NCBI GenBank assembly: GCA_965198325.1
Contig: CBDAPE010000015.1
Span: 335,158 to 399,157, forward strand
Direction of reading: 5' to 3'
From: Alphaproteobacteria bacterium
GTDB taxonomy: Bacteria > Pseudomonadota > Alphaproteobacteria > UBA828 > JAPUJA01
DNA: 64,000 nt
The translations under genes and the position numbers were made by a program. This document shows, piece after piece, positions 1 to 24,308 of the stretch; positions within the stretch are counted from its first letter, which is position 1, and each line of letters opens with the position of its first letter. Below the pieces are notes generated by a model. It saw only the letters and a list, made by a program, of their open reading frames with translations. It was not told the origin of the DNA and searched no databases.

Positions 1-150
1 CTCGCCGTCGATGCCGACGCCGTTATCCGCGACGACGACCGAAGCGCCCCGGGAGGCCAGCGCGTGCGCGATCGCAAGGCCGATTCCCCGGCCAGCGCCC
101 GTGACGATTGCCACCCGGCCGGTAAGGCTCTGGTCGGTCCGATCTGTCAT
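1..150 (-). CDS. Short-chain dehydrogenase/reductase (SDR), N-terminal part. The gene runs off the left edge of the window.
   Basis: The reverse-complement of 1-150 reads MTDRTDQSLTGRVAIVTGAGRGIGLAIAHALASRGASVVVADNG. It contains the SDR TGxxxGIG Rossmann motif. The start overlaps the stop of the downstream gene by 4 bp. Confidence 0.7.
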   Translation of the reverse strand, partial: MTDRTDQSLTGRVAIVTGAGRGIGLAIAHALASRGASVVVADNGVGIDGE

Positions 151-1175
151 GCGGTCAACTCCAGGGCGGCCTTTTCCGCCGCCGTGTAAAACGCGTCCGC
201 ATGGCAATTCTCGCGCGCCACGCCCAGTTCGTAAAGCTGGACGAGACAGCTTTCCACCATCGGCGGGGGACCGGCGAGGTAGGCGCGTGCGCCCTCGCCG
301 GCGATGCGGTCTTCGCCAAGACCGTCCGCCAGCAGCCCGGTCCGCCGCTCCGTGGGCCCGACGGGCTCGGACAGCACGACCCGGTAGTCGAGATTTGCAT
401 GGGCCGACGCCAGGTCCTTGAAGTGATCCTCGAGATAAACGTCGCGCTCGTCGCGCACCCCGTGGTAGAGCCGGATCGGCGCTTTGAGCCCCGCGGCAAG
501 CGCCTCCTCGACAATCGCCTTGATGGGCGCAAGGCCCGAGCCCCCTGCGAGCGCGACCACGGGACCCGTGTGACGGGCCCGCCAGTAGGCGAAGCCGAAC
601 GGGCCTTCGGCGCGCACCGGATCGCCGAGGCTGAGGGTGTTGCGCACAAAGCCGCTGACCGCGCCGTTCTCGAGCGCCCGAACGTGGAAGTCGAGCGTCG
701 CCTCGTCGGGCCGGCTCGCCATGGAATAGTCGCGCACGGGCAGGCCGTCGAAGGTCAGTTCCGCATATTGCCCCGCGGTGAAGTGAAACGGCCCGCCCGC
801 GACCACGTCGAGGGTCACGCGCGTGATGTCGTGGGTCAGAGGGGTGAGCGCGGCGACCGTGCAGTCGAGCCGGCGGCGGGGATGAGCGACCAGCTCGTCG
901 TCTTCGAGGAACGCGATCTCGCAGTCGCTCCAGGGGACCGCACGGCAGGCCAGGATCAGGCCGGCGGCGGCTTGCTGCGCCGAGAGCGCGTGCTCCGAAT
1001 AGGGCGCCATCCGGACATCGCCCGAATGCAGGCGTGACTTACAGGCGCCGCAGTTGCCCGACTTGCAGCCGTGCGGATAGGGCCGCCCGAGGCCGAGCGC
1101 GGTTTCGAGGATCGTCGCGCCCATCTCGACAATGAACGGCTCGTTCCACTGCCGGACGGTTACCGTGTAGCTCAT
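147..1175 (-). CDS. Oxidoreductase with an N-terminal plant-type 2Fe-2S ferredoxin fused to an FNR-like FAD/NAD(P)-binding domain. Probable oxygenase reductase component.
   Basis: 342 aa. The N-terminus has CKSGNCGACK...C (Cx4Cx2C...C, 2Fe-2S). It is followed by an RDYSMAS (RxYS FAD-binding) motif and a GGSGLAP NAD-binding motif. Confidence 0.85.
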   Translation of the reverse strand: MSYTVTVRQWNEPFIVEMGATILETALGLGRPYPHGCKSGNCGACKSRLHSGDVRMAPYSEHALSAQQAAAGLILACRAVPWSDCEIAFLEDDELVAHPRRRLDCTVAALTPLTHDITRVTLDVVAGGPFHFTAGQYAELTFDGLPVRDYSMASRPDEATLDFHVRALENGAVSGFVRNTLSLGDPVRAEGPFGFAYWRARHTGPVVALAGGSGLAPIKAIVEEALAAGLKAPIRLYHGVRDERDVYLEDHFKDLASAHANLDYRVVLSEPVGPTERRTGLLADGLGEDRIAGEGARAYLAGPPPMVESCLVQLYELGVARENCHADAFYTAAEKAALELTA

Positions 1176-1308
1176 GCGTGGTCCGTCGTCGTTTCCAGGC
1201 AGGCATCTTGGGACCCGGGCGACCGGTTGGCAACGCGCAGACGCAGGCTATGAATTTTTCACCGGCTGGGCGAAGATTTACCGGTTCAAGATCAAGGGGG
1301 ACCGAATC

Positions 1309-1908
1309 ATGACCGACGAACGCGATCTCATAATCCCGCCTAAATCGGGGCGCGCCATCGTGGTGAAACGGGGCGAGACTCTCCGGGTGACCGACCTGGA
1401 AGGTCACCAGGTGGCCGACTTCGTGTGCTTCAACGAACACGACCATTCGGAATTTCTTTCCGCCGGGAAAACCCGGATGAACCCCTTCAAGGTCCGGATC
1501 TCGACTGGTGACAGACTCTATTCGAACCTGAGCACGGTCCTGTTTACGATCGGCAAGGACACGGTCGGCGTGCACGACCTGCTGTTCCCGCCGTGCAACC
1601 GCTGGCTCTACGAGAATGCGCTCGGCCAGCCGGGCGGCACCGGATGCCTCGAGAACCTGCGCGACGCGCTGGCGCCTTACGGGATCGAAGAATGGCAGGT
1701 GCCGGACCCGTTCAACCTGTTCATGAACACCCGCGTGGATGACGAAGACAATCTGGTCATCGAACTACCGAAATCCGGTCCGGGCGATTACATCGAACTC
1801 ACCGCCGAGATGGATTGTCTGGTCGGCGTGACCTCCTGCGCGGAGGAAAAGGCGAGCGACTGCAACGGCCGGCACGTGACCCCGATCGGGCTTGCGATCG
1901 TCCGCTGA
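1309..1908 (+). CDS. DUF1989-like (urea-carboxylase-associated family) protein
   Basis: 199 aa beginning MTDERDLIIPPKSGRAIVVKRGETLRVTDLEGHQVADFVCF. GGGGA lies about 8 nt upstream of the ATG. The longer ORF from 1174 has an Arg-rich leader and is probably not translated. The family call is from memory of the DUF1989 profile. Confidence 0.6.
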   Translation: MTDERDLIIPPKSGRAIVVKRGETLRVTDLEGHQVADFVCFNEHDHSEFLSAGKTRMNPFKVRISTGDRLYSNLSTVLFTIGKDTVGVHDLLFPPCNRWLYENALGQPGGTGCLENLRDALAPYGIEEWQVPDPFNLFMNTRVDDEDNLVIELPKSGPGDYIELTAEMDCLVGVTSCAEEKASDCNGRHVTPIGLAIVR

Positions 1909-2273
1909 TCCCGCGCGCGGCGCGCCGGCCAGGTGAAAGTCCAAGAATTGATGTCGTCATTGGATGATGGCTTGCCGAAGGGCATGGAGTAGTGGTCTCG
2001 GACGAGACTGGCTTCAAGGTCCACAGCGCCACCCTCTCGCGCGCGAGACCTTCACGAGACTTATGACGGCAGGATCGGGACAAGACGGAAGCAATATCAC
2101 GGCCCCATCGGGGGCATGATCGAAACGGGCTGTGCTCACGGTCGGGGGAAATTGGGGAGCGGGTCGATGGGCCAATCAATGCGACGTTCGAACCGGGCGC
2201 TACCCGATGAAGGCCGGTTTTGGTCTCGGCCGCGGGCTGTGCCAGCTTTTGGCGACAGGAGACGATTTATCGC

Positions 2274-2371
2274 GAAGAATTCAGCTAAGACGATTGTTCC
2301 AATGATTGCGGCCGTTATCGCCGCCTGAGGTTATTTTGGCGGACGAGGTTGGGGTAAATATAACGTGCGCC
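2274..2371. repeat. 98-bp repeat, copy A (~90% identical to 8309-8406). It carries a remnant of the Rieske-oxygenase start (GTG at 2365, reading MRHPKLTSRR then a stop).
   Basis: Direct alignment of 2274-2371 with 8309-8406 gives about 10 mismatches in 98 nt. Similarity ends exactly after gtgcgcc. Confidence 0.8.
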
Positions 2372-2450
2372 ATCCCAAGCTCACCTCCAGACGTTGACGC
2401 CCTCGCGCATCAGCCGTCCTACAACGGTACTGCGGCCGCCTGCGCAACAC

Positions 2451-2638
2451 CTTAGACGTAGTCCTTGGGGACAAGGGCTCGGCCGTCGAGCGCGAATGGT
2501 ACGATCACCTCATCGCGGCAGGGCTCGAGTCTTCCGGACATGGCACTCGCGAGGAGCCGCTTGCGTCCGGTCCTCTACCCAACAACCATGGTGGCGCAGC
2601 GAGTGTGATCGGAATCCTGGTCGGCAGGGCCGGACAGT
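2451..2638. repeat. 188-bp direct repeat, copy 1 (100% identical to 3002-3189)
   Basis: Identical 188-nt strings begin cttagacgtagtccttggggacaagg and end ggtcggcagggccggacagt. The next base differs (g vs a). Confidence 0.9.
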
Positions 2639-2639
2639 G

Positions 2640-2789
2640 CGAGAGAAGCTCATCAAGATCGGAGCGAAGATCGTGCGCCACGGGCGCTACGTCACGTTCC
2701 AGATGGCCGAGGTTGTCATTCCTCGTGACCTGTTCGCCGACATCCTGCGCCGTATCGACCGGCTCAGGCCGCCGCCAGCCCCGGCATGA
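2640..2789 (+). pseudogene. IS transposase C-terminal fragment (DDE transposase 3' end only). It starts directly at the end of the first 188-bp repeat.
   Basis: The translation REKLIKIGAKIVRHGRYVTFQMAEVVIPRDLFADILRRIDRLRPPPAPA then a stop is a characteristic transposase C-terminus. The preceding in-frame sequence is Arg-rich nonsense. No N-terminal or catalytic part is present. The IS family was not resolved. Confidence 0.6.
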
Positions 2790-3001
2790 GCGACGGCACC
2801 CCGTTCCTTCGCGTCGCCGCCGACAGGATCGGTGTGCCCGGATCGCCGGCAAAAATGCCATTCCGCGCCACCAACGCCGCCAATTGGTCCTCAATCATCC
2901 GGCTCGGCGCGAAGATGGCTGTCATTCGAAGGCAAATTGCACGTCGAGCGGTTTCGAGTCACACTCAACGGGCTGGGAGGGTTCCATATGGGGAATCCCG
3001 G

Positions 3002-3189
3002 CTTAGACGTAGTCCTTGGGGACAAGGGCTCGGCCGTCGAGCGCGAATGGTACGATCACCTCATCGCGGCAGGGCTCGAGTCTTCCGGACATGGCACTCG
3101 CGAGGAGCCGCTTGCGTCCGGTCCTCTACCCAACAACCATGGTGGCGCAGCGAGTGTGATCGGAATCCTGGTCGGCAGGGCCGGACAGT
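3002..3189. repeat. 188-bp direct repeat, copy 2
   Basis: See copy 1. Confidence 0.9.
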
Positions 3190-3500
3190 AGCTCAACTTA
3201 CAGTCGAAGCCGTCCAACGATTGGGGAGCAGCCCAATTCGGGGAGATAACAGTGAGAATTTCCGAACACATGGAACCCTACTTCCAGGGCTGAGTTACCA
3301 ACGATACCGCGGGCCACTTGAAGTCGGCCGCCAACAGAGTTTCTTTTTCGACGATCCCGACACCAGCAGAATTTCCAAGGCTGACTCCGAGGCGTATTTT
3401 GCCGCGCTCAATGTCGCGGTGGGCGAGAATCGCGCGGGCAAGACATTCAGCTATACTAACTGCCCCGAGGGCTCCCGTCGCAAAGCGAAAGGATCGCACC

Positions 3501-3872
3501 ATGACCGTGGCCGAACGCATCGAGGCCTATCTTCAGGCCTGGGTTACCGGCGATGTCTCAAGTCTGCTGGCGCAGTTTGCGGACAGTTTCTTATTCGACG
3601 ATCCCAATGTGGGCCGGATAACCCGACCTGGATTCAAAACCTACATGGAAGGTATCATGGCGAATGTCGAGCGTGTACGCGATGGCCGGAAATGCGAAAA
3701 TTTCGTGGAACTGAGCGAGATAGTCTCCAAGCACGAAGACGACGGCACAGCCACCCTCTGGTACTGGTGGGCCATCGCCGGCACGACGATCGAAGGATCC
3801 AGCCTCGTAAAGATCGGGCCCGAAGGCGTTCGCTCCGAGATCTACTGCTACTATGCCCGGACAGCGGAATGA
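3501..3872 (+). CDS. SnoaL-like/NTF2-fold small protein
   Basis: 123 aa beginning MTVAERIEAYLQAWVTGDVSSLLAQFADSFLFDDPNVG. The pattern is typical of SnoaL/NTF2-like proteins. AAAGGA lies 8 nt upstream of the ATG. Confidence 0.55.
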   Translation: MTVAERIEAYLQAWVTGDVSSLLAQFADSFLFDDPNVGRITRPGFKTYMEGIMANVERVRDGRKCENFVELSEIVSKHEDDGTATLWYWWAIAGTTIEGSSLVKIGPEGVRSEIYCYYARTAE

Positions 3873-4408
3873 CCGCGCGGCATTGTTCGGGGAAACAGAC
3901 ATCGTCAGGGTAAATTGGATGGAACCTCCTGACGAGTTTCATAACCTCCAGGGATGCAACACCGATTCCGCTATTTTGACATTTCGCTCGAAGTGACCCG
4001 CCTCGCGGAGATGATGTACGTCCACCACCCTAACCACTGCGATCTGTTCGAACAGAACCGCGCTGCCGCGCTCACGGAAAGGCGCCAACTCGCCGCGTGA
4101 GGGTCTTGATCGTTTCAAATCCCAAGGCTCAGCCCAATAATTTCTGTCCGCCCGTGGCCCGATCTATAACCTCTTCAACGCGCAACGCCATCTCGTTTTC
4201 CGCCACACGCTTCGAACCTTTTGCGATCACGCGATGGAGGAATGGAACGCTGTGACGGCGGCCGCGTGAATAGACCGGACTTCAAGTAAAAACCTGCCTC
4301 GCTTAAGTTAAGTTGACAGCTCCTATTTGACAACTCAGATACCTCAGCATTAAGGTCATAGAAAACGTTATAAATAATTTGCAGAGAGTGTCACAGGGAG
4401 ATTAAATC

Positions 4409-5476
4409 ATGACATCTGGCACATTTAAAATAGTCGCCGTGTCGGCCGCGCTGTTTGCTAGTACTGCGTTCAGTTACTTGGCCACTACGGCCACTACGGC
4501 ATTTGCAGGCGAGTTAAACCTACTCACGTGGGAAGGATACACTGACCAGAGCTTTATCGCCGCTTTCGAGGAGAGGACCGGATGTAAGATCACCGAGACC
4601 TTTATTGGGTCGCAGGAAGAGATCGCACCCAAGCTCTCGGGTGCCACGGGAGTCTACGACCTCGTCTCCCCCCAGATCGATTCGGCAAAAATCTTAGCTC
4701 AGATGGGTGTGGTTGAGCCTATTGACGTTCCGCGCCTCAAGCATTGGGGGGAATTCTACGGGTCGTTCATTGATCATCCCGGTCTCATCATCGACGGCGA
4801 GACGTGGGGTATGCCGTTTACCTGGGGTTCGGTCCCCCTGATGTATCGCACGGATAAGATCGACGATCCTCCGTCCTCGTTCTCGGTTCTCTGGGATCCG
4901 AGGTATGCCGGCAAGACCGCAGTGCAGGACGACAAGTCCAATATTTACATTGCTGCCCGTCTGCTCTTTGGGAGGGACTTTGACGCCTACAAGATGACCG
5001 ATGAGCAGCTTGAAACCGTGAAAGAAAAGTTAATCGAACAGAAAAAATACCTCCGCAAGTATTGGGCATCGGCGGGTGAACTTATAAATCTCTATGCGAA
5101 CGGTGAAGTCTGGATTTCTACCACTTGGGGCGGCTACCAAGTGGCTATACTCCAAGAACAGGGTATCCCAGTCGTTGAAGTCCTTCCCGAGGAGAGGGCC
5201 GAAGGATGGCAGGATGTCTGGATGATCGTAAAAGACACCGCCAATAGGGATTGTGCCTACGAGTGGCTCAACTTTGCGAGCGGATCCGAGGGCCAATGCG
5301 GAGTCGCAAGTGTCACGGGATATTGGGGAGCAAACCCGGTGGCGCTAGAGAGCTGCATGACGCCGGACATATTCCGTCCCTCCGAAGATTATACCGATAA
5401 CCTCTCGTTCCCAACTCAGCCGGAACCGCTTGAAGGCTATGTTAACACTTGGAATGCCGTAAAGACCGCCCCTTGA
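4409..5476 (+). CDS. Periplasmic substrate-binding protein, ABC family 1 (spermidine/putrescine PotD/PotF-like). It is an orphan: no permease or ATPase lies nearby.
   Basis: 355 aa with an N-terminal signal peptide (MTSGTFKIVAVSAALFASTAFSYLA...AFA). The codon usage is noticeably AT-richer than the flanks. An AT-rich promoter-like region with two TTGACA boxes lies at about 4310-4340. Confidence 0.7.
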   Translation: MTSGTFKIVAVSAALFASTAFSYLATTATTAFAGELNLLTWEGYTDQSFIAAFEERTGCKITETFIGSQEEIAPKLSGATGVYDLVSPQIDSAKILAQMGVVEPIDVPRLKHWGEFYGSFIDHPGLIIDGETWGMPFTWGSVPLMYRTDKIDDPPSSFSVLWDPRYAGKTAVQDDKSNIYIAARLLFGRDFDAYKMTDEQLETVKEKLIEQKKYLRKYWASAGELINLYANGEVWISTTWGGYQVAILQEQGIPVVEVLPEERAEGWQDVWMIVKDTANRDCAYEWLNFASGSEGQCGVASVTGYWGANPVALESCMTPDIFRPSEDYTDNLSFPTQPEPLEGYVNTWNAVKTAP

Positions 5477-5520
5477 TGGGCGATGACGGCGTCAAGTGAA
5501 CTAAACCACACTGGAGGAGT

Positions 5521-5547
5521 CCCGCCCCTTTGATGTCGAGGGGCGGG
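5521..5547 (+). terminator. Putative intrinsic terminator after the binding-protein gene
   Basis: cccgcccc-tttgatgtcga-ggggcggg forms an 8-bp GC stem, followed by atttcgtg. Confidence 0.45.
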
Positions 5548-5702
5548 ATTTCGTGCGAACTCCAAGCCGATCCTGGAAACGATCTCTTTGAGGCCGAAAT
5601 GGTTATCAAGAATAAGAGTGAATCCTGCATGCCTTGGCCAATTTTCTAATAGCCTTGAAGTCACTTCGAGAATGCACAACCAGAGACCCGTGAGAGGAAC
5701 AC

Positions 5703-8297
5703 GTGCCGTCGATTTATAAGATACAGCCCGAAGATCGGATTTACGCTGAAGAATTTCGTCGAAATCCGATTGGCCACCACAGCCCTGGGTTAAATCGCAT
5801 TCTCACCTTGTTTAGAGGTGAACCGGTCGAGAAGAAAGATGTTCTCGTATGCGTACAACCCCACCGAGAGTGGTGGCTGGGACAGTTGTCCGGGCACCGA
5901 GGAAGGCCAATCAGGATTATTCGAGATAAGTGTTTTAGAAATCTCTGGGACGCGGAGTGGGAGATTTTCAAAAGGCGGTGGAAAAAGCATACGGGCGAAG
6001 ACCTTGAAGGCCAGGATAAGCAGCGCGAAGCCCCCCACTCCTATCGGGACGACGGCATCAGGATTACAGGTTATAGCGACCGCATCGGTGTGAGGCCGGG
6101 CGAAACCATCCACTTCAAGGTCTCATGCGACCGCGTCAAGAGCTACCGCTCCGACATTGTCCGTCTCGTCTGCGGCGACACTGATCCTAATGGGCCGGGC
6201 TTCAAGGAGAAGCTCGTGAAGACTGGTGTGAGCGGGCGCTACAAAGGTCGAAAACAGGCGATTCGCGTGGGATCCCACACGATCGTGCCCACTGCATCCG
6301 CACTCGAAGCGCTGGAGAGCTTTTCCCTGCAAGCGATGATTTGGCCGACTACTCCCAGGAAAAGTATTCAAGGGATCATTTCAAAGTGGTCCGCAGGGTC
6401 AAAAAGTGGATTTGCACTAATCATCGACGAGAAGGGCGAGGCCGCCCTAATGGTCGGGGACGGAGCCGGCCGAGTGCACATCGTCAGCACGGGACGACGC
6501 CTGCTCGATCGGCAATGGTATTTCGTGGGGGCAAGTTTTGATGCCCGGGCGCAGCGAGTCCGTGTATTTCAGGAGCCGCTTGTGCAGTTTCCGGGACATG
6601 ATGACCCTGCTGTAAAAAGCCAAACGCTCGAGCTAGCTCGGGTCGGAGCAAATGACTGTCCGTTAATCATGGCCGGAATACAGCAGCGATCTTCGAAGGC
6701 TCGGATAATCGTGGGAAACCACTATAACGGCAAGATTGACAGCCCACGTCTTGCCAACCGAGCCCTTTCACCAGCGGAGGTGGAGACCCTTAAGCATGGC
6801 GTTCCCGCCGCTCTCGAAGATGCGGTCGTTGCCGCTTGGGACTTCTCGCGCGACATTGGCTCCGAGCGCATTGCAGACCTTTCGCCCAACCAGCTCCAGG
6901 GCACGATGGTCAACCTGCCCACGCGCGCGGTAACGGGCTGGAATTGGACGGGGCAGCATATGCGCTGGAGCGAGGCCCCCGAGCAATGGGGCGCGATTCA
7001 CTTTCATGACGACGATCTTTACGACGCGGGCTGGGAGACGGATTTTGAGTGGAAAGTGCCCGGGCGTATGAAGAGCGGTCTCTACGCTACGCGCCTTCGC
7101 TCCGGACGATCCGAGGAATACGTTCCTTTTGCCGTCGGGCCGAGGCCAGGGCACGAGTCGAAGGTAGCACTCCTTCTGCCAACCGCCAGTTACATGGCCT
7201 ACGCCAACGAGCACTCAGGAACGGACTCGGACACGATTGAACGGATGAACGGCGTTGTTTGCGTCCTGTACCCGCAAGACCTGTTTCTAAACAAGCATCG
7301 GGAATACGGTGCCTCGCTCTACGACACGCACACAGACGGGAGTGGTGTCGTCTACTCTTCGCGCCTGCGTCCGATCCTGAACATGCGGCCCAAATACGAA
7401 TCCAACATGGGCGGAGCGAAAGTCCACCAGTTCAACGCGGATACCCACATCATCGACTGGCTCGAGGCGAACGACATCGAATACGACGTCATTACGGACG
7501 AGGAGCTCGACCGACGTGGCATGGCGTTGCTGTCCCCTTACCGGGTTGTGCTCACCGGGACCCATCCGGAGTACTGGTCGCCTAAGATGCAGGACGGGAT
7601 GGTCGCCTACGAGCGCCGCGGGGGACGACTGATGTATCTGGGCGGCAACGGGTTCTACTGGAAGATCGCCTTTCACCCGGAATTGCCCGGCGTGATCGAA
7701 GTCCGCCGCAACGAGACCGGCATGCGCGCCTGGCCGTCGGCGCCCGGTGACTACTACCACGCCTTCGACGGCGAATACGGTGGCCTCTGGCTGAACCAGG
7801 GCGGCGGGAGAACACAACAGTCTATGGTCGGAACCGCCTTTTGCGCCCAGGGGTTCGATCTTTCCTCCTACTACCGGCGCAAGCCGGACAGTCTTGACCA
7901 GAAGGTGAAATTCATTTTCGAGGGGATCGAAGACGACGAGTTGATCGGCGATTTCGGGTTGCTTGGAGGGGGCGCGGCCGGCTGGGAGATCGACTGTATT
8001 TCCTATGATCAAGGGACGCCGTCAAACACATTCGTTTTGGCGAGTTCTGAGGACCATACGGACGTTTATCAGCTTACTGCCGAAGAGATGCTCGAAGGTT
8101 ACGCGGGCACCGGAGGACAAGAAAATCCTCGCGTTCGTTCAGATATGGTGTTTTTCGAGACTGCAGATGGCGGAGCCGTGTTCTCAGTCAGCTCGATTGC
8201 CTGGGCGGCGAGCTTGTCGCACAACAATTATAAGAACAATGTTTCGCGGATAACGAAAAACGTTTTGACTCGCTTCCTCGATCCAAGAGTCTTCTAA
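5703..8297 (+). CDS. Large (864 aa) protein resembling the N,N-dimethylformamidase large (beta) subunit family (GATase1-like C-terminal domain)
   Basis: GTG start with GAGAGGA 5 nt upstream. The C-terminal half has LLLPTASYMAYANE, RVVLTGTHPEYWSPKMQDGMVAYERRGGRLMYLGGNGFYWK and AFDGEYGGLWLNQGGG. I recall these as characteristic of DMFase large-subunit/GATase1-like proteins. No small-subunit gene is adjacent. The family call is from memory. Confidence 0.45.
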   Translation: MPSIYKIQPEDRIYAEEFRRNPIGHHSPGLNRILTLFRGEPVEKKDVLVCVQPHREWWLGQLSGHRGRPIRIIRDKCFRNLWDAEWEIFKRRWKKHTGEDLEGQDKQREAPHSYRDDGIRITGYSDRIGVRPGETIHFKVSCDRVKSYRSDIVRLVCGDTDPNGPGFKEKLVKTGVSGRYKGRKQAIRVGSHTIVPTASALEALESFSLQAMIWPTTPRKSIQGIISKWSAGSKSGFALIIDEKGEAALMVGDGAGRVHIVSTGRRLLDRQWYFVGASFDARAQRVRVFQEPLVQFPGHDDPAVKSQTLELARVGANDCPLIMAGIQQRSSKARIIVGNHYNGKIDSPRLANRALSPAEVETLKHGVPAALEDAVVAAWDFSRDIGSERIADLSPNQLQGTMVNLPTRAVTGWNWTGQHMRWSEAPEQWGAIHFHDDDLYDAGWETDFEWKVPGRMKSGLYATRLRSGRSEEYVPFAVGPRPGHESKVALLLPTASYMAYANEHSGTDSDTIERMNGVVCVLYPQDLFLNKHREYGASLYDTHTDGSGVVYSSRLRPILNMRPKYESNMGGAKVHQFNADTHIIDWLEANDIEYDVITDEELDRRGMALLSPYRVVLTGTHPEYWSPKMQDGMVAYERRGGRLMYLGGNGFYWKIAFHPELPGVIEVRRNETGMRAWPSAPGDYYHAFDGEYGGLWLNQGGGRTQQSMVGTAFCAQGFDLSSYYRRKPDSLDQKVKFIFEGIEDDELIGDFGLLGGGAAGWEIDCISYDQGTPSNTFVLASSEDHTDVYQLTAEEMLEGYAGTGGQENPRVRSDMVFFETADGGAVFSVSSIAWAASLSHNNYKNNVSRITKNVLTRFLDPRVF

Positions 8298-8308
8298 CTG
8301 TTTATTGG

Positions 8309-8406
8309 GAAGAACTCAGCTAAGATGATTGTTCCCATGATTGCAGCCACTATCGCCACCTGAGGTTATTTTGGCGGACGAGGTTGAGGTAAATTTAACG
8401 TGCGCC
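8309..8406. repeat. 98-bp repeat, copy B. It contains the leader and the GTG start (8400) of the intact Rieske oxygenase gene.
   Basis: See copy A. Confidence 0.8.
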
Positions 8407-9572
8407 TGGAAGATTTTATCGATCGCGAACGCTTGGCCGACCTTGACCGGCCGATAGGCGAAACGGCCGGTCTCCCGGGAAGCGCGTACAGCGAGGGATT
8501 TTACAAACTCGAACAAAGGGAATTTTTTCCCCGCACATGGTGTGCCATCGCCGTCGGATCGCAAGTTCCCAGACCGGGAGATGTGATACCCATCGACCTC
8601 GCGGGCTGGCCGCTCCTCCTTGTTCGCAATCAGTCGGGTCAAATCAAGGTTTTCCACAACATGTGTCAACACCGGGGCATGCGCGTCGTGACGAAGTCCG
8701 CATGTCGCCAGGAGCTTCGGTGCCCGTGGCATGCCTGGACCTACGATCTGGATGGCCGTCTCAAAACGCGGCGCGATTTCGCAGGTTGGAACGCGCCGGA
8801 TGCCGGAGACATGAATGCGGAGCTACCCGGACTTAAAGAAGTGCGGTCGGATCAGTGGCACGACTACGTAATGGTCAATATCGACGGCAAGGCGCCGCCG
8901 CTTCGAGATCATATCAAGCCTCTCGATGACTTCCTCCAGGACTACGATCTTGATGCTTTCGAGTACGCGAACACGCTGGAGCATTCTTACGAAGGCAACT
9001 GGAAGCTGGCGATGGAGGGTGGGCTCGAGGAATACCATCTACGTTCGGCGCATCCCCGCTTTGCCAAGGGCGTCATTTCGCAAAATCTTGAGTTCAGCCT
9101 CGATGCGGCCTGCCATTCGGGTTACCTGTTCTCTCGGAACTTTGGAGAAACCGAAAGGGCGGATCGAGTGGGCGAGCGCGGCATGCCGGCTCGTCCTGGT
9201 ACCCCACGCGACGTTGAGAACTATTACCTGATCAACCTATTTCCTGTGGGCCTGATGCTCCTTGAGGACGATCACGCAATCTTCATCTTGTTTACCCCCG
9301 ATGGTTGGAACCGCACGCGCGTCGTCAACTACCACTATTATTTTGGTGCCGCGGCTGTTGATCCGGCTTATGCCGAGGTCCGCAAGGAGTTTGAAGACGT
9401 TTGGACAGAGGTGATGTACCAGGACGCGGATTTCGTGAAATACGTCCATGAGAATGCGCAGCTGCGTGATGCGGTCGGCATCAATTCGCACTTCGCGCCT
9501 TATTGGGAAAGGCCGGTCCAGCATTTTCAACGACTCGTCATAGATACGATGAAAAATAGCTCGGACGGATGA
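8400..9572 (+). CDS. Rieske [2Fe-2S] non-haem iron oxygenase alpha subunit (GbcA/Stc2/CntA-like N-demethylating monooxygenase family)
   Basis: 390 aa. The Rieske motif is CQHRG...x17...CPWHAW (CxH...CxxH). A downstream catalytic domain is present. GAGG lies upstream of the GTG. Confidence 0.85.
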   Translation: MRLEDFIDRERLADLDRPIGETAGLPGSAYSEGFYKLEQREFFPRTWCAIAVGSQVPRPGDVIPIDLAGWPLLLVRNQSGQIKVFHNMCQHRGMRVVTKSACRQELRCPWHAWTYDLDGRLKTRRDFAGWNAPDAGDMNAELPGLKEVRSDQWHDYVMVNIDGKAPPLRDHIKPLDDFLQDYDLDAFEYANTLEHSYEGNWKLAMEGGLEEYHLRSAHPRFAKGVISQNLEFSLDAACHSGYLFSRNFGETERADRVGERGMPARPGTPRDVENYYLINLFPVGLMLLEDDHAIFILFTPDGWNRTRVVNYHYYFGAAAVDPAYAEVRKEFEDVWTEVMYQDADFVKYVHENAQLRDAVGINSHFAPYWERPVQHFQRLVIDTMKNSSDG

Positions 9573-9896
9573 GGGCGGGCGGCCAAGCTGGTTGAAGCCG
9601 GCTGAATTGGGATTGCCGGGCGAGTCAATTCCCAGCGCTCGCGGACGCCCGATCTGAATCTGATTCCAAGTCTTTAAAATATTTGCTTTGGGCCAGAAGC
9701 GGCCCCCGCTGGCGGAGAATTCGAACGGCCTGCAATGTGTCCGCGGACGGACTCTCGGATGGTGGCTCCAGACCCTAAATGAGAACGGCGGCGCAATAAT
9801 CCCCCCCTGAAGCGGCCGGTTGATCCGGCTGTGGCGGACCAAAATGGGACCGTCTATAGCCTTCTGTCAGGGTTGCTCTGACTGGAAGGCGGGGGG

Positions 9897-22367: not shown

Positions 22368-22478
22368 TGATGGTCTCCCCATTCCTGAGTCGAACGCCGA
22401 ACGTGCCCCATCCGCAGGGTGCCCGACCATTCAAGGCAGATTATATCAGCCATGGGGGAGCGTCACCCGGTGCGTCGA

Positions 22479-23302
22479 TCAGGCCGGGCGCTCCCAGACC
22501 CGCGGAAACTGCAGATCGAGATCGAACGAATCTCCGGTCTTGAGATCGGTCGGGTATTTCGGAAACTCGGCGGGCGGGTCGCGCAGGACGAACCAGGAAT
22601 TCTCGGACAGCCAGCGATGGGTCAGCGAGCGGCGCGTCTGGTTCGTCGTCGGATTGGCGCGTCCCTGATGGAGCGTCAAGCCATGAAAAAACAAGACATC
22701 GCCAGGCTCCATTTCCCAAAAGACGATGTCGTAATTGTCCCGGTTGGCCTCGATCTCGGGAACGCGTTCGAAGACGTCGCCGGGATAGCGCGAGCCGTCG
22801 GCCAGGCTGTCGATCGGCGCAAACCAACGGTTCCATTTATGGGAGCCGCGGATGAACTCGACGCAGAATTCCTCGCCCATACAGAACAACGGAATCCAGT
22901 TCGAACTCATCTGCCCATCGACCGCCATGTAGGGCAGATCCTGGTGCCAATTGGTCAGCGCGAGCGTGCCGGCCTCCTTGACAAAGACGTGGTCGTCAAA
23001 AAGGTTTACCCGGCTTGCCCCGATGAGCCTGCCCGCGAGCTCGGCGCAGGGCCCCTCGAACGCGAAACGTTTGAGCTCCGGCACGTGACGCCACATATAG
23101 AAATCGTTGAAGAAATAACCGGGGCGCCTTCCTTCGTGTAGATCTCCGCATAGGGGCCGGGATCCGCCATATCCTGTTCGACGCCGGTTCGGATCATTTC
23201 AATCCACGCAGGCTCGATGGCGCCCCGCAGGCAGACGACACCGTCTTCTTCGTAGGCCCGGATATGCTCGTCGGTGATCTCGAAGCTGGCCGCCTTCGTC
23301 AT
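22479..23302 (-). pseudogene. Phytanoyl-CoA dioxygenase (PhyH) family Fe(II)/2OG oxygenase, frameshifted. Tandem paralogue of 23358-24182.
   Basis: MTKAASFEITDEHIRAYEEDGVVCLRGAIEPAWIEMIRTGVEQDMADPGPYAEIYTKEGAP is followed by a frame break in a C/G homopolymer near 23105-23112. It continues as YFFNDFYMWRHVPELKRFAFEGPC...HWHQD-like in another frame. Confidence 0.7.
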
Positions 23303-23357
23303 TCGGCGTCGCTCTTCTCTCCCGGTCAGCCCGCCGCTACGCCGCCCGGTACGTCGA

Positions 23358-24182
23358 TCAGGCCGCCTGCTCCCAGACCCGCGGGAACTGGGGATCGAGG
23401 TCGATCGGATCGCCGGTCTTGAGCCCGGTCGGATATTTCGGGAATTCGGCGGGCGGGTCGCGCAGAACGAACCGGGCGTCGTCGGCCAGCCACCGGTGGG
23501 TCAGCGAGCGGCGGGTCTCGTTCGAGGTCGGGTTGGCGCGGCCCTGGTGGACCATCAGGCCTTGGAAGAAAAGGATGTCGCCGGGCTCCATTTCCCAAAA
23601 GACGATGTCGTAGTCGGCGCGATTGGCCTCGATCTCCGGGACCCGCTCGAAGACCCTGCTGGGATGGCGGGAGCCATCGAGCAGGCTGTCGACTGGCGCG
23701 AACCAGCGCTCCCATTTATGGGAGCCGCGAACGAACTCGACGCAGAGCTCTTCGGGAGCCGAAAACAGTGGAATCCAGTTCGAGCACATCCGTCCATCGA
23801 CGGCCATGTAAGGCTGATCCTGATGCCAGTGAGTGGGTGTCTGCGTGCCCGCCTCCTTGACGAAGATGTGGTCGAAAAAAAAGTTGACCCGGTTCGTCTG
23901 CATGAGCTTGCCAGCGATTTCGGCGCAGGGTCCCTCAAAGACGAATTGTTTAAGTTCGGGCACGTGGCGCCACATGTCGAAATCATTGAAGAAATAACCG
24001 AGATCGCTGGCGTCTGTATAAATCTCCACATTGGGGCCCGGTTCCGCCATGTCCTTCTCGACGCCGGTCTTGATCGTCTCGATCCATTTGGGCGAGATGG
24101 CACTTCGCAGGCAGACCACGCCGTCTTCCTGAAAGGCCCTGACCTGCTCGTCGGTAATCTCGAAGCTGTCGGGTTTCATCAT
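23358..24182 (-). CDS. Phytanoyl-CoA dioxygenase (PhyH) family Fe(II)/2-oxoglutarate-dependent oxygenase
   Basis: 274 aa from MMKPDSFEITDEQVRAFQEDGVVCLRSAI (GAGGGA RBS). HWHQDQPYMAVDG (HxD) is present, and a downstream His in FFQGLMVHQGRANPT. Confidence 0.75.
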   Translation of the reverse strand: MMKPDSFEITDEQVRAFQEDGVVCLRSAISPKWIETIKTGVEKDMAEPGPNVEIYTDASDLGYFFNDFDMWRHVPELKQFVFEGPCAEIAGKLMQTNRVNFFFDHIFVKEAGTQTPTHWHQDQPYMAVDGRMCSNWIPLFSAPEELCVEFVRGSHKWERWFAPVDSLLDGSRHPSRVFERVPEIEANRADYDIVFWEMEPGDILFFQGLMVHQGRANPTSNETRRSLTHRWLADDARFVLRDPPAEFPKYPTGLKTGDPIDLDPQFPRVWEQAA

Positions 24183-24308
24183 TCGTTGTCCCTCGTTCCC
24201 GCCAATCAAACGATCCCGTCTCCCACCCGCCCCAGCCCGAGGGCGATCGCGCCCCGCTGGCAGCGAGGATCGATGCATTGTCTAAAAAAACAGACAGTAG
24301 ATGCAAGT

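Follow-up and report, generated by a model that had tools for sequence, protein, structure and literature searches.

How did the tail of a transposase gene come to lie between two identical copies of a 188-nt sequence? The question is raised by positions 2451 to 3189 of the window, by which we mean the whole 64-kb stretch of DNA analyzed here (64,000 nt). An earlier note, made from the letters alone, had described two 188-nt direct copies with 100% identity (2451-2638 and 3002-3189). This was borne out at every base, and no third copy is present in the 64-kb window. The identity has sharp edges. On the left, copy 1 is preceded by ...CAACAC and copy 2 by ...CCCGG; on the right, copy 1 runs into GCGAGAG and copy 2 into AGCTCAA. 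A perfect match of 188 nt cannot have arisen by chance. The features of the region are as follows.

1309-1908: DUF1989 gene, flanking the 188-mer site
2451-2638, no strand assigned: copy 1 of the 188-bp resident (target) DNA, joined to the native left flank
2451-2455, plus strand: CTTAG, resident copy of the 4-5 bp target attacked by the IS end (flank consensus N-T-(T/A)-A-R)
2638, plus strand: left (illegitimate) junction; T2638 can be assigned to the 188-mer or to IS nt 1293
2639-2789, plus strand: C terminus of an IS1380-family DDE transposase, 49 codons and stop, a 5′-truncated pseudogene fragment (Pfam, NCBIfam)
2790-3001, plus strand: right end of the IS, 212 bp, noncoding, including the right terminal inverted repeat (IRR); 97-98% identical to copies L001, L003, and L027
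About 2982-3001, plus strand: IRR, TTCCATATGGGGAATCCCGG, at the tip of the IS right end
3002-3189, no strand assigned: copy 2 of the 188-bp resident DNA, with CTTAG directly after the IS tip; joined to the native right flank
3501-3872: SnoaL-like gene, flanking the 188-mer site

The repeats enclose the right end of an IS1380-family element

The 363 bp between the two copies correspond to the last part of an IS (IS nt 1293-1656). Here the earlier note had placed about 50 C-terminal codons of a DDE transposase and about 210 bp of presumed IS end, with the transposase fragment starting at the first base after copy 1. All of this agrees with what was found. IS homology begins at 2638/2639, T2638 being common to the 188-mer and the IS, and 49 codons (2640-2786; REKLIKIGAK...RPPPAPA, REKLIKIGAKIVRHGRYVTFQMAEVVIPRDLFADILRRIDRLRPPPAPA) lead to a stop at 2787-2789, followed by the 212 bp of noncoding end. 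The fragment matches positions 392 to 434 of the 435-position Pfam profile DDE_Tnp_1_4 (E value, 1.6e-8) as well as the end of the NCBIfam IS1380 profile. Taken alone, the 49 residues score under the cut-offs of both collections (33.7 against 34.7 bits for Pfam, 19.2 against 180 bits for NCBIfam).

A protein search with the fragment yielded many near-identical C-terminal fragments. Three contigs that carry them (L001 to L003) align to window 2638-3001 at 97-98% identity. Since these three diverge from one another immediately past ...GGGTTCCATATGGGGAATCCCGG, the IS tip was placed at 3001. The presumed IS end is thus that of an IS1380 element and stops at a true terminal inverted repeat. The terminal IRR 20-mer was then scanned against one genome per species, a set in which the 30 loci found do not include the window's own genome. 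Nearly all of the 30 lie in Alphaproteobacteria or Rhodospirillales metagenome-assembled genomes (MAGs), one of which is named as a Spongia bin, and in all of the roughly 30 copies the flanks diverge right past ...CCCGG.

Several of these loci hold full-length copies. The reference copy, L027, is 1,656 bp long and has a 449-amino-acid open reading frame (ORF) whose product scores 396.4 bits against the NCBIfam IS1380 profile (cut-off, 180 bits). Its left terminal inverted repeat (IRL) is CCCGCATTTCCCAAGTGA..., beginning CCCGCATTTCCC, and its IRR is ...CCATATGGGGAATCCCGG, with the tip ...GGGGAATCCCGG. In full copies, the IRL and the reverse-complemented IRR match at 12 of 18 positions. Target-site duplications are seen around L018 (CTTTG/CTTTG) and L027 (TAAA/TAAA), while the two halves agree at 3 or 4 of 5 positions around older full copies; the norm for the IS1380 family is a direct repeat of 4-5 bp (PMC12116815). 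A consensus of N-T-(T/A)-A-R emerged from the right flanks of 25 distinct insertions, with T at position 2, T or A at position 3, and A at position 4 in 22 sites each. Sites of this kind are often TTAA or TTAG in this IS1380 clade. As judged from the profile and contig comparisons made here, the parent appears to be an IS1380-family member that had no earlier name. The analysis thereby defines a 1,656-bp element, with its ends and its N-T-(T/A)-A-R preference, that is widespread in MAGs of uncultured Alphaproteobacteria.

Two further observations concern the parent element. Copies L026 and L037 are otherwise full length with intact ORFs but their similarity to the reference ends at nt 81, shortly before the start codon; this may mark a common 5′ truncation point or a variant IS with another left end. 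In two genomes, an identical IRR-flank junction (40 flank bases) occurs twice: L009 and L031 in OZ253490.1, where the two lie on opposite strands with tails of 118 and 500 bp, and L011 and L030 in OZ243926.1. The doubled junctions suggest segmental duplications that included IS remnants.

By comparison, the window copy is a dead remnant without IRL or catalytic domain. Where a complete mobile IS has both ends and an intact transposase gene, only nt 1293-1656 are there, 98.1% identical to L027 over 364 nt. A search with up to 3 mismatches found no IRL in the 64-kb window, and neither other pieces nor a second copy of the parent IS were found in it. The flanking direct repeat is 188 bp, not the 4-5 bp of a canonical transposition product. 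No promoter, terminator, or Rfam family was detected in or around the IS tail.

The 188-mer is single and free of IS DNA in near-identical contigs

The earlier note had raised the possibility that the 188-mer is a normal internal part of an IS. It does not occur in the 1,656-bp parent. Exact look-ups of both flanking proteins, DUF1989 and SnoaL-like, retrieved three contigs from separate assemblies in which the site is empty: a 395-kb contig (ERZ25071897), a 3x long-read contig (ERZ25072670), and a short-read Logan contig (ERR13605531). Compared with window 1-2638 and 3002-9871, they show 99.85-99.96% identity, and in each of them exactly 188 bp belong to both alignment blocks. All three contain the 188-mer once, identical to both window copies, and contain no IS DNA; the window is longer by exactly 551 bp (363 + 188). 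L004, L005, and L006, each with a single 188-mer, align to window 1-2638 in one gap-free block, and window 3002-9871 is colinear with L004 5502-12372.

Because it is single and IS free in three near-identical contigs, the 188-mer is, as judged from these alignments, resident intergenic DNA between the DUF1989 and SnoaL-like genes. The same three contigs identify the outer junctions (2450/2451 and 3189/3190) as native. The comparison also shows no footprint in the native left flank. Most likely, then, the window bears a strain-specific 551-bp insertion in noncoding DNA, made up of an IS tail and a second 188-bp copy. The idea that the 188-mer belongs to an IS or repeat family was dropped, as it is absent from the parent IS, has no plasmid match, and is single in the empty alleles.

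The 188-mer has an open frame through all 62 codons, which the earlier note had reported together with the lack of a recognizable domain. Both observations stand: neither Pfam nor NCBIfam gave a match to the frame. Among 5.8 billion proteins, its sole match is P0121, the product of a 67-amino-acid ORF on one contig, probably the window's own. P0121 consists of MGNPG and the 62 residues; its start lies inside the IRR, so that it crosses the IS/188-mer junction. The codon-position GC content of the 188-mer is unlike that of the neighboring genes. The frame lacks the homologues or domain and the ORF conservation expected of a protein-coding sequence, and it is probably fortuitous and not coding. 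A suspected IS5-like "DKGY" motif had suggested a coding fragment, a candidate that was rejected for want of any Pfam or NCBIfam match or homologue.

Two other explanations bear on the empty alleles themselves. In the first, the direction of change runs the other way: 188-tail-188 came first, and homologous recombination later removed 551 bp from the three empty contigs. Recombination between perfect 188-bp repeats would yield exactly the empty allele, and the three lineages form an unrooted star with no single-nucleotide polymorphism position shared, so that one change fits either direction. Against this, the repeats are free of differences and the arrangement is unstable, and hence it is expected to be young. 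We regard a reversed polarity as very unlikely, and it would leave the nature and first origin of the structure unchanged.

In the second, the arrangement is an assembly or library artifact that conceals either the empty allele or a full IS insertion. The 551 bp are indeed missing from three other assemblies of the same population, and the junction-spanning ORF is recorded on a single contig. Two scans of JGI metagenomes returned neither the junction nor the 188-mer itself and so do not bear on the question either way. However, the edge between the 188-mer end and IS nt 1293 occurs in neither allele, and correct reads would thus have given an assembler no way to produce it; nor would a chimera formed at random break off exactly at the IS tip beside a consensus target. 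The repeat is, moreover, direct and not inverted, and 188 bp exceeds the k-mer overlaps familiar as assembly artifacts. An artifact is accordingly improbable.

The two ends of the insertion have different signatures

At the right junction (3001/3002), the exact IS tip (...GGGGAATCCCGG) abuts CTTAG, which fits N-T-(T/A)-A-R. By our own estimate, from the 25-site counts at roughly 60% GC, about 1% of random sites would fit. That an authentic IS tip meets a preferred N-T-(T/A)-A-R site is strong evidence that this joint was made by the transposase.

The left junction (2638/2639) lies inside the transposase gene. Its parents are resident DNA, in which ...GGACAGT is followed by AGCTCA, and IS DNA, in which ...CCAGCCT is followed by GCGAGAG; they share 1 nt of microhomology, T2638. 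Given its place inside the IS and a microhomology of just 1 nt, it is illegitimate and host made. The inner boundary, TGCGAGAGAAGC, has no inverted-repeat likeness: by our comparison it matches the IRL at 3 of 20 positions, and it lacks the terminal G that is said to matter for the IS1380 family. A pseudo-IRL inside the IS at the breakpoint was rejected on these grounds. On the target, the two joints lie 188 bp apart, compared with the 4-5 bp of the family.

These junctions divide an earlier proposal, according to which the repeats arose in a recent event such as tandem duplication or illegitimate recombination across an IS end. The 1-nt microhomology of the left junction supports illegitimate recombination across an IS end. 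Simple tandem duplication is rejected because copy 1 is preceded by native flanking sequence instead of IS DNA.

Could both joints have been made without a transposase? In a templated insertion, by fork stalling and template switching or by microhomology-mediated break-induced replication, synthesis would pass from the 188-mer to nt 1293 of a remote IS copy, continue to the IS end and a CTTA flank, return to the resident CTTAG through 4-5 nt of microhomology, and copy the 188-mer again. The 1 nt of microhomology at the left junction is in keeping with this path, and a donor with a CTTA flank is plausible, since about 5 of the 25 distinct sites of the parent IS have a flank starting CTTA. The path leaves to chance, however, that the second switch fell within a few bases of the IS tip, and the closest IS copy found is only 98.1% identical to the tail. 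Such an origin has a slim chance of being correct.

Aberrant transposition is the most likely origin of the arrangement

Together, these results make aberrant transposition the most likely origin of the 188-tail-188 arrangement. Within it, the reading we favor, at a probability of roughly 45%, is a one-ended, abortive insertion of the IRR that was finished by host repair. An IS copy, excised or broken, would perform strand transfer through its IRR only, on the top strand, between A and CTTAG. The freed target 3′-OH would then be extended by 188 nt through strand-displacing synthesis, and the nascent end would pass onto the tethered IS fragment at its broken inner end, by switching or by joining. 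Once the fragment had been copied out to the IRR and the strand had rejoined the target, one strand would read 188-tail-188, and the next round of replication would fix the 551-nt loop. The repair steps in this series are ones that we infer. The absence of an IRL or a second IS copy from the window and the footprint-free left flank support a one-ended origin, which would need one rare event, fewer than the multistep alternatives. Against it stand the other truncated tails and the fragment searches described below, which show no recurrent pathway of this kind. In addition, the junction between the 188-mer and the IS is on record in one contig only, and the product is unlike the known one-ended products of the IS1380 family, those of ISEcp1/ISEc9, which use the IRL with a surrogate IRR and keep 5-bp repeats.

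A two-ended start is possible but more doubtful. A full IS would have inserted normally at CTTAG, and a host-mediated illegitimate rearrangement would have followed by one of three routes. Illegitimate exchange between filled and empty sister chromosomes could have joined the 188-mer end to IS nt 1293 (route a). Alternatively, a 551-bp tandem duplication of the IS tail and the 188-mer could have formed first, the intact upstream IS then being excised precisely (route b). Finally, a single replication pass could have made two template switches, a slip between the target-site duplications across the IS and a return to nt 1293 (route c). These routes predict a filled-site left junction of the form ...CGCAACAC-CTTAG-CCCGCATTTCCC, and a reciprocal deletion product would join the 5′ part of the IS to AGCTCAACTTAC.

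Such a start accounts equally well for the IRR-target joint and for the target consensus, and related MAGs hold intact, apparently active copies of the parent IS. In bacteria, duplications across short junctions with 0-1 nt of homology are frequent. IS1380 transposases are treated as distant prokaryotic relatives of piggyBac, whose excision is precise; if precise excision is common to both, route b becomes natural and explains the footprint-free left flank. On the other side, such a history packs two or three rare events into a tiny divergence, as the empty-site strains differ from the window at only 4-10 positions in about 9.5 kb. Nor is a filled intermediate on record: the IRR-starting 67-amino-acid ORF marker occurs on one contig only (four related contigs were sampled).

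Under the favored reading of a one-ended insertion, the 188-tail-188 structure is without function, neither a gene nor a functional system. It is young and prone to loss by homologous recombination, because perfect 188-bp repeats are liable to recombinational loss. It is a separate claim, and an unlikely one, that an IS1380-family transposase completes insertion by its right end alone, with the host finishing the product through target-primed synthesis and template switching. If this were true, the arrangement would be a DNA-transposon counterpart of 5′-truncated LINE insertions with long target-site duplications, and some solo IS tails in these genomes would have been defective since insertion and not decayed later.

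Other truncated tails lack flanking repeats

About 21 of about 28 IRR-bearing copies are 5′ truncated, with tails of 64 to 1,073 bp and many breakpoints. At least one of these tails was simply cut by an IS21 insertion. In the 30 other IRR-bearing copies, no repeat joins DNA upstream of the breakpoint to DNA downstream of the IRR. The window arrangement is a one-off, since the roughly 21 other truncated tails have no long flanking repeat, and a recurrent mechanism was rejected on the same 30-copy result. The notion that the tail is a MITE was also abandoned in view of the many breakpoints at the 30 loci, the missing IRL, and the absence of flanking repeats.

An asymmetry between heads and tails was considered as a sign of polar truncation. 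A C-terminal transposase query returned only proteins of up to 90 amino acids, and an N-terminal query did likewise, at similar abundance. Polar truncation was therefore rejected; the short-protein pattern reflects either the search itself or general fragmentation. Neither fragment abundance nor the 30-copy repeat test gave any sign of a recurrent, polar, IRR-primed pathway.

As a separate observation, four independent tails break within about 16 nt of one another: L002 at about nt 1283, L013 at 1292, the window at 1293, and L029 at 1298. The L001 tail breaks at IS nt 1264. Under a uniform model for the approximately 21 tails, this clustering has a rough P value of about 0.02 to 0.05, although tail lengths are not uniformly distributed. 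A breakage hotspot near IS nt 1283-1298 is only a suggestion.

Relation to known elements and significance

The parent element resembles IS1380 elements such as ISEcp1/ISEc9 in its DDE transposase, its imperfect terminal inverted repeats ending in G, and its 4-5 bp target duplication; the window insertion differs in consisting of the last 363 bp only, with 188 bp of duplicated target. ISEcp1-type units show that the family tolerates noncanonical end usage. Those units, however, use the IRL with a downstream surrogate IRR, carry adjacent DNA, and have 5-bp repeats, whereas in the window the IRR is the sole end, resident DNA is duplicated, and no foreign DNA is carried. With no IRL, an inner boundary that is not IR like, and a 188-bp repeat, the window insertion is not such a unit.

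In LINE insertions made by target-primed reverse transcription, the 3′ end is intact at a preferred target and the 5′ end is randomly truncated; the 5′ junction has microhomology, and the target duplication is long and variable. The anatomy of the window insertion matches that of 5′-truncated LINE insertions. The differences are that it is a DNA element with a DDE transposase, without reverse transcriptase or poly(A), and a single case. It shares with bacterial short-junction tandem duplications and IS remnants an illegitimate joint with 0-1 nt of homology and unstable perfect repeats, but here foreign IS DNA lies between the copies, and native DNA adjoins the left one. The frequent use of TTAA or TTAG by the parent IS clade recalls eukaryotic, TTAA-specific piggyBac; the N-T-(T/A)-A-R preference, however, is degenerate, not strict.

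For the organism, the insertion is of little consequence: noncoding debris between two genes that is likely to be lost again. It is a real and ordinary kind of object with an unusual scar. Its interest is that of a natural, datable example of aberrant DDE transposition, in which the empty site is known, one junction was made by the transposase and the other by the host, and the 188-bp target duplication is about 40 times the IS1380 norm. The mechanism of the IS1380 family, which mobilizes blaCTX-M genes, is poorly known, and such scars hint at the outcome when only one IS end engages.

Other repeats and remnants in the window

Mobile-element debris has accumulated over 1909-4300. The intergenic stretch that holds the insertion also holds the remnant of an IS6-family transposase C terminus at approximately 4107-4269 on the plus strand (RFKSQGSAQ*FLSARGPIYNLFNAQRHLVFRHTLRTF..., with an in-frame stop). 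By tblastn, this remnant is 55% identical to an annotated IS6 transposase from a Skermanella plasmid; it had no match in NCBIfam.

A 106-nt direct repeat with 90% identity and sharp edges occurs at 2266-2371 and 8301-8406. The copy at 8301-8406 covers the first codons of a Rieske oxygenase gene (GTG start near 8399) and the DNA immediately preceding them, while the copy at 2266-2371 is an orphan with a stop after 10 codons. The two bracket about 6 kb with the SnoaL-like, solute-binding protein, and DMF_alpha (N,N-dimethylformamidase-like) genes. GC content is 0.67-0.72 in the first 1.2 kb, compared with 0.47-0.55 around 4.2-6 kb. The segment with the binding-protein and DMF_alpha genes is consistent with acquired DNA bordered by IS debris.

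A degenerate, partial copy of the N-terminal part of the SnoaL-like gene lies just upstream of it in another frame (about 3320-3430 compared with 3580-3690), as seen from a 21-nt repeat (3338-3358 and 3585-3605, 95% identity) and from 33% identity over 36 amino acids. Farther along, at 22461-24000, adjacent minus-strand paralogues repeat with a period of 879 bp and 79-83% DNA identity. Their ORFs span 22479-23096 (205 amino acids, the N-terminal part apparently absent) and 23358-24278 (306 amino acids), and the pair looks like an older tandem gene duplication.
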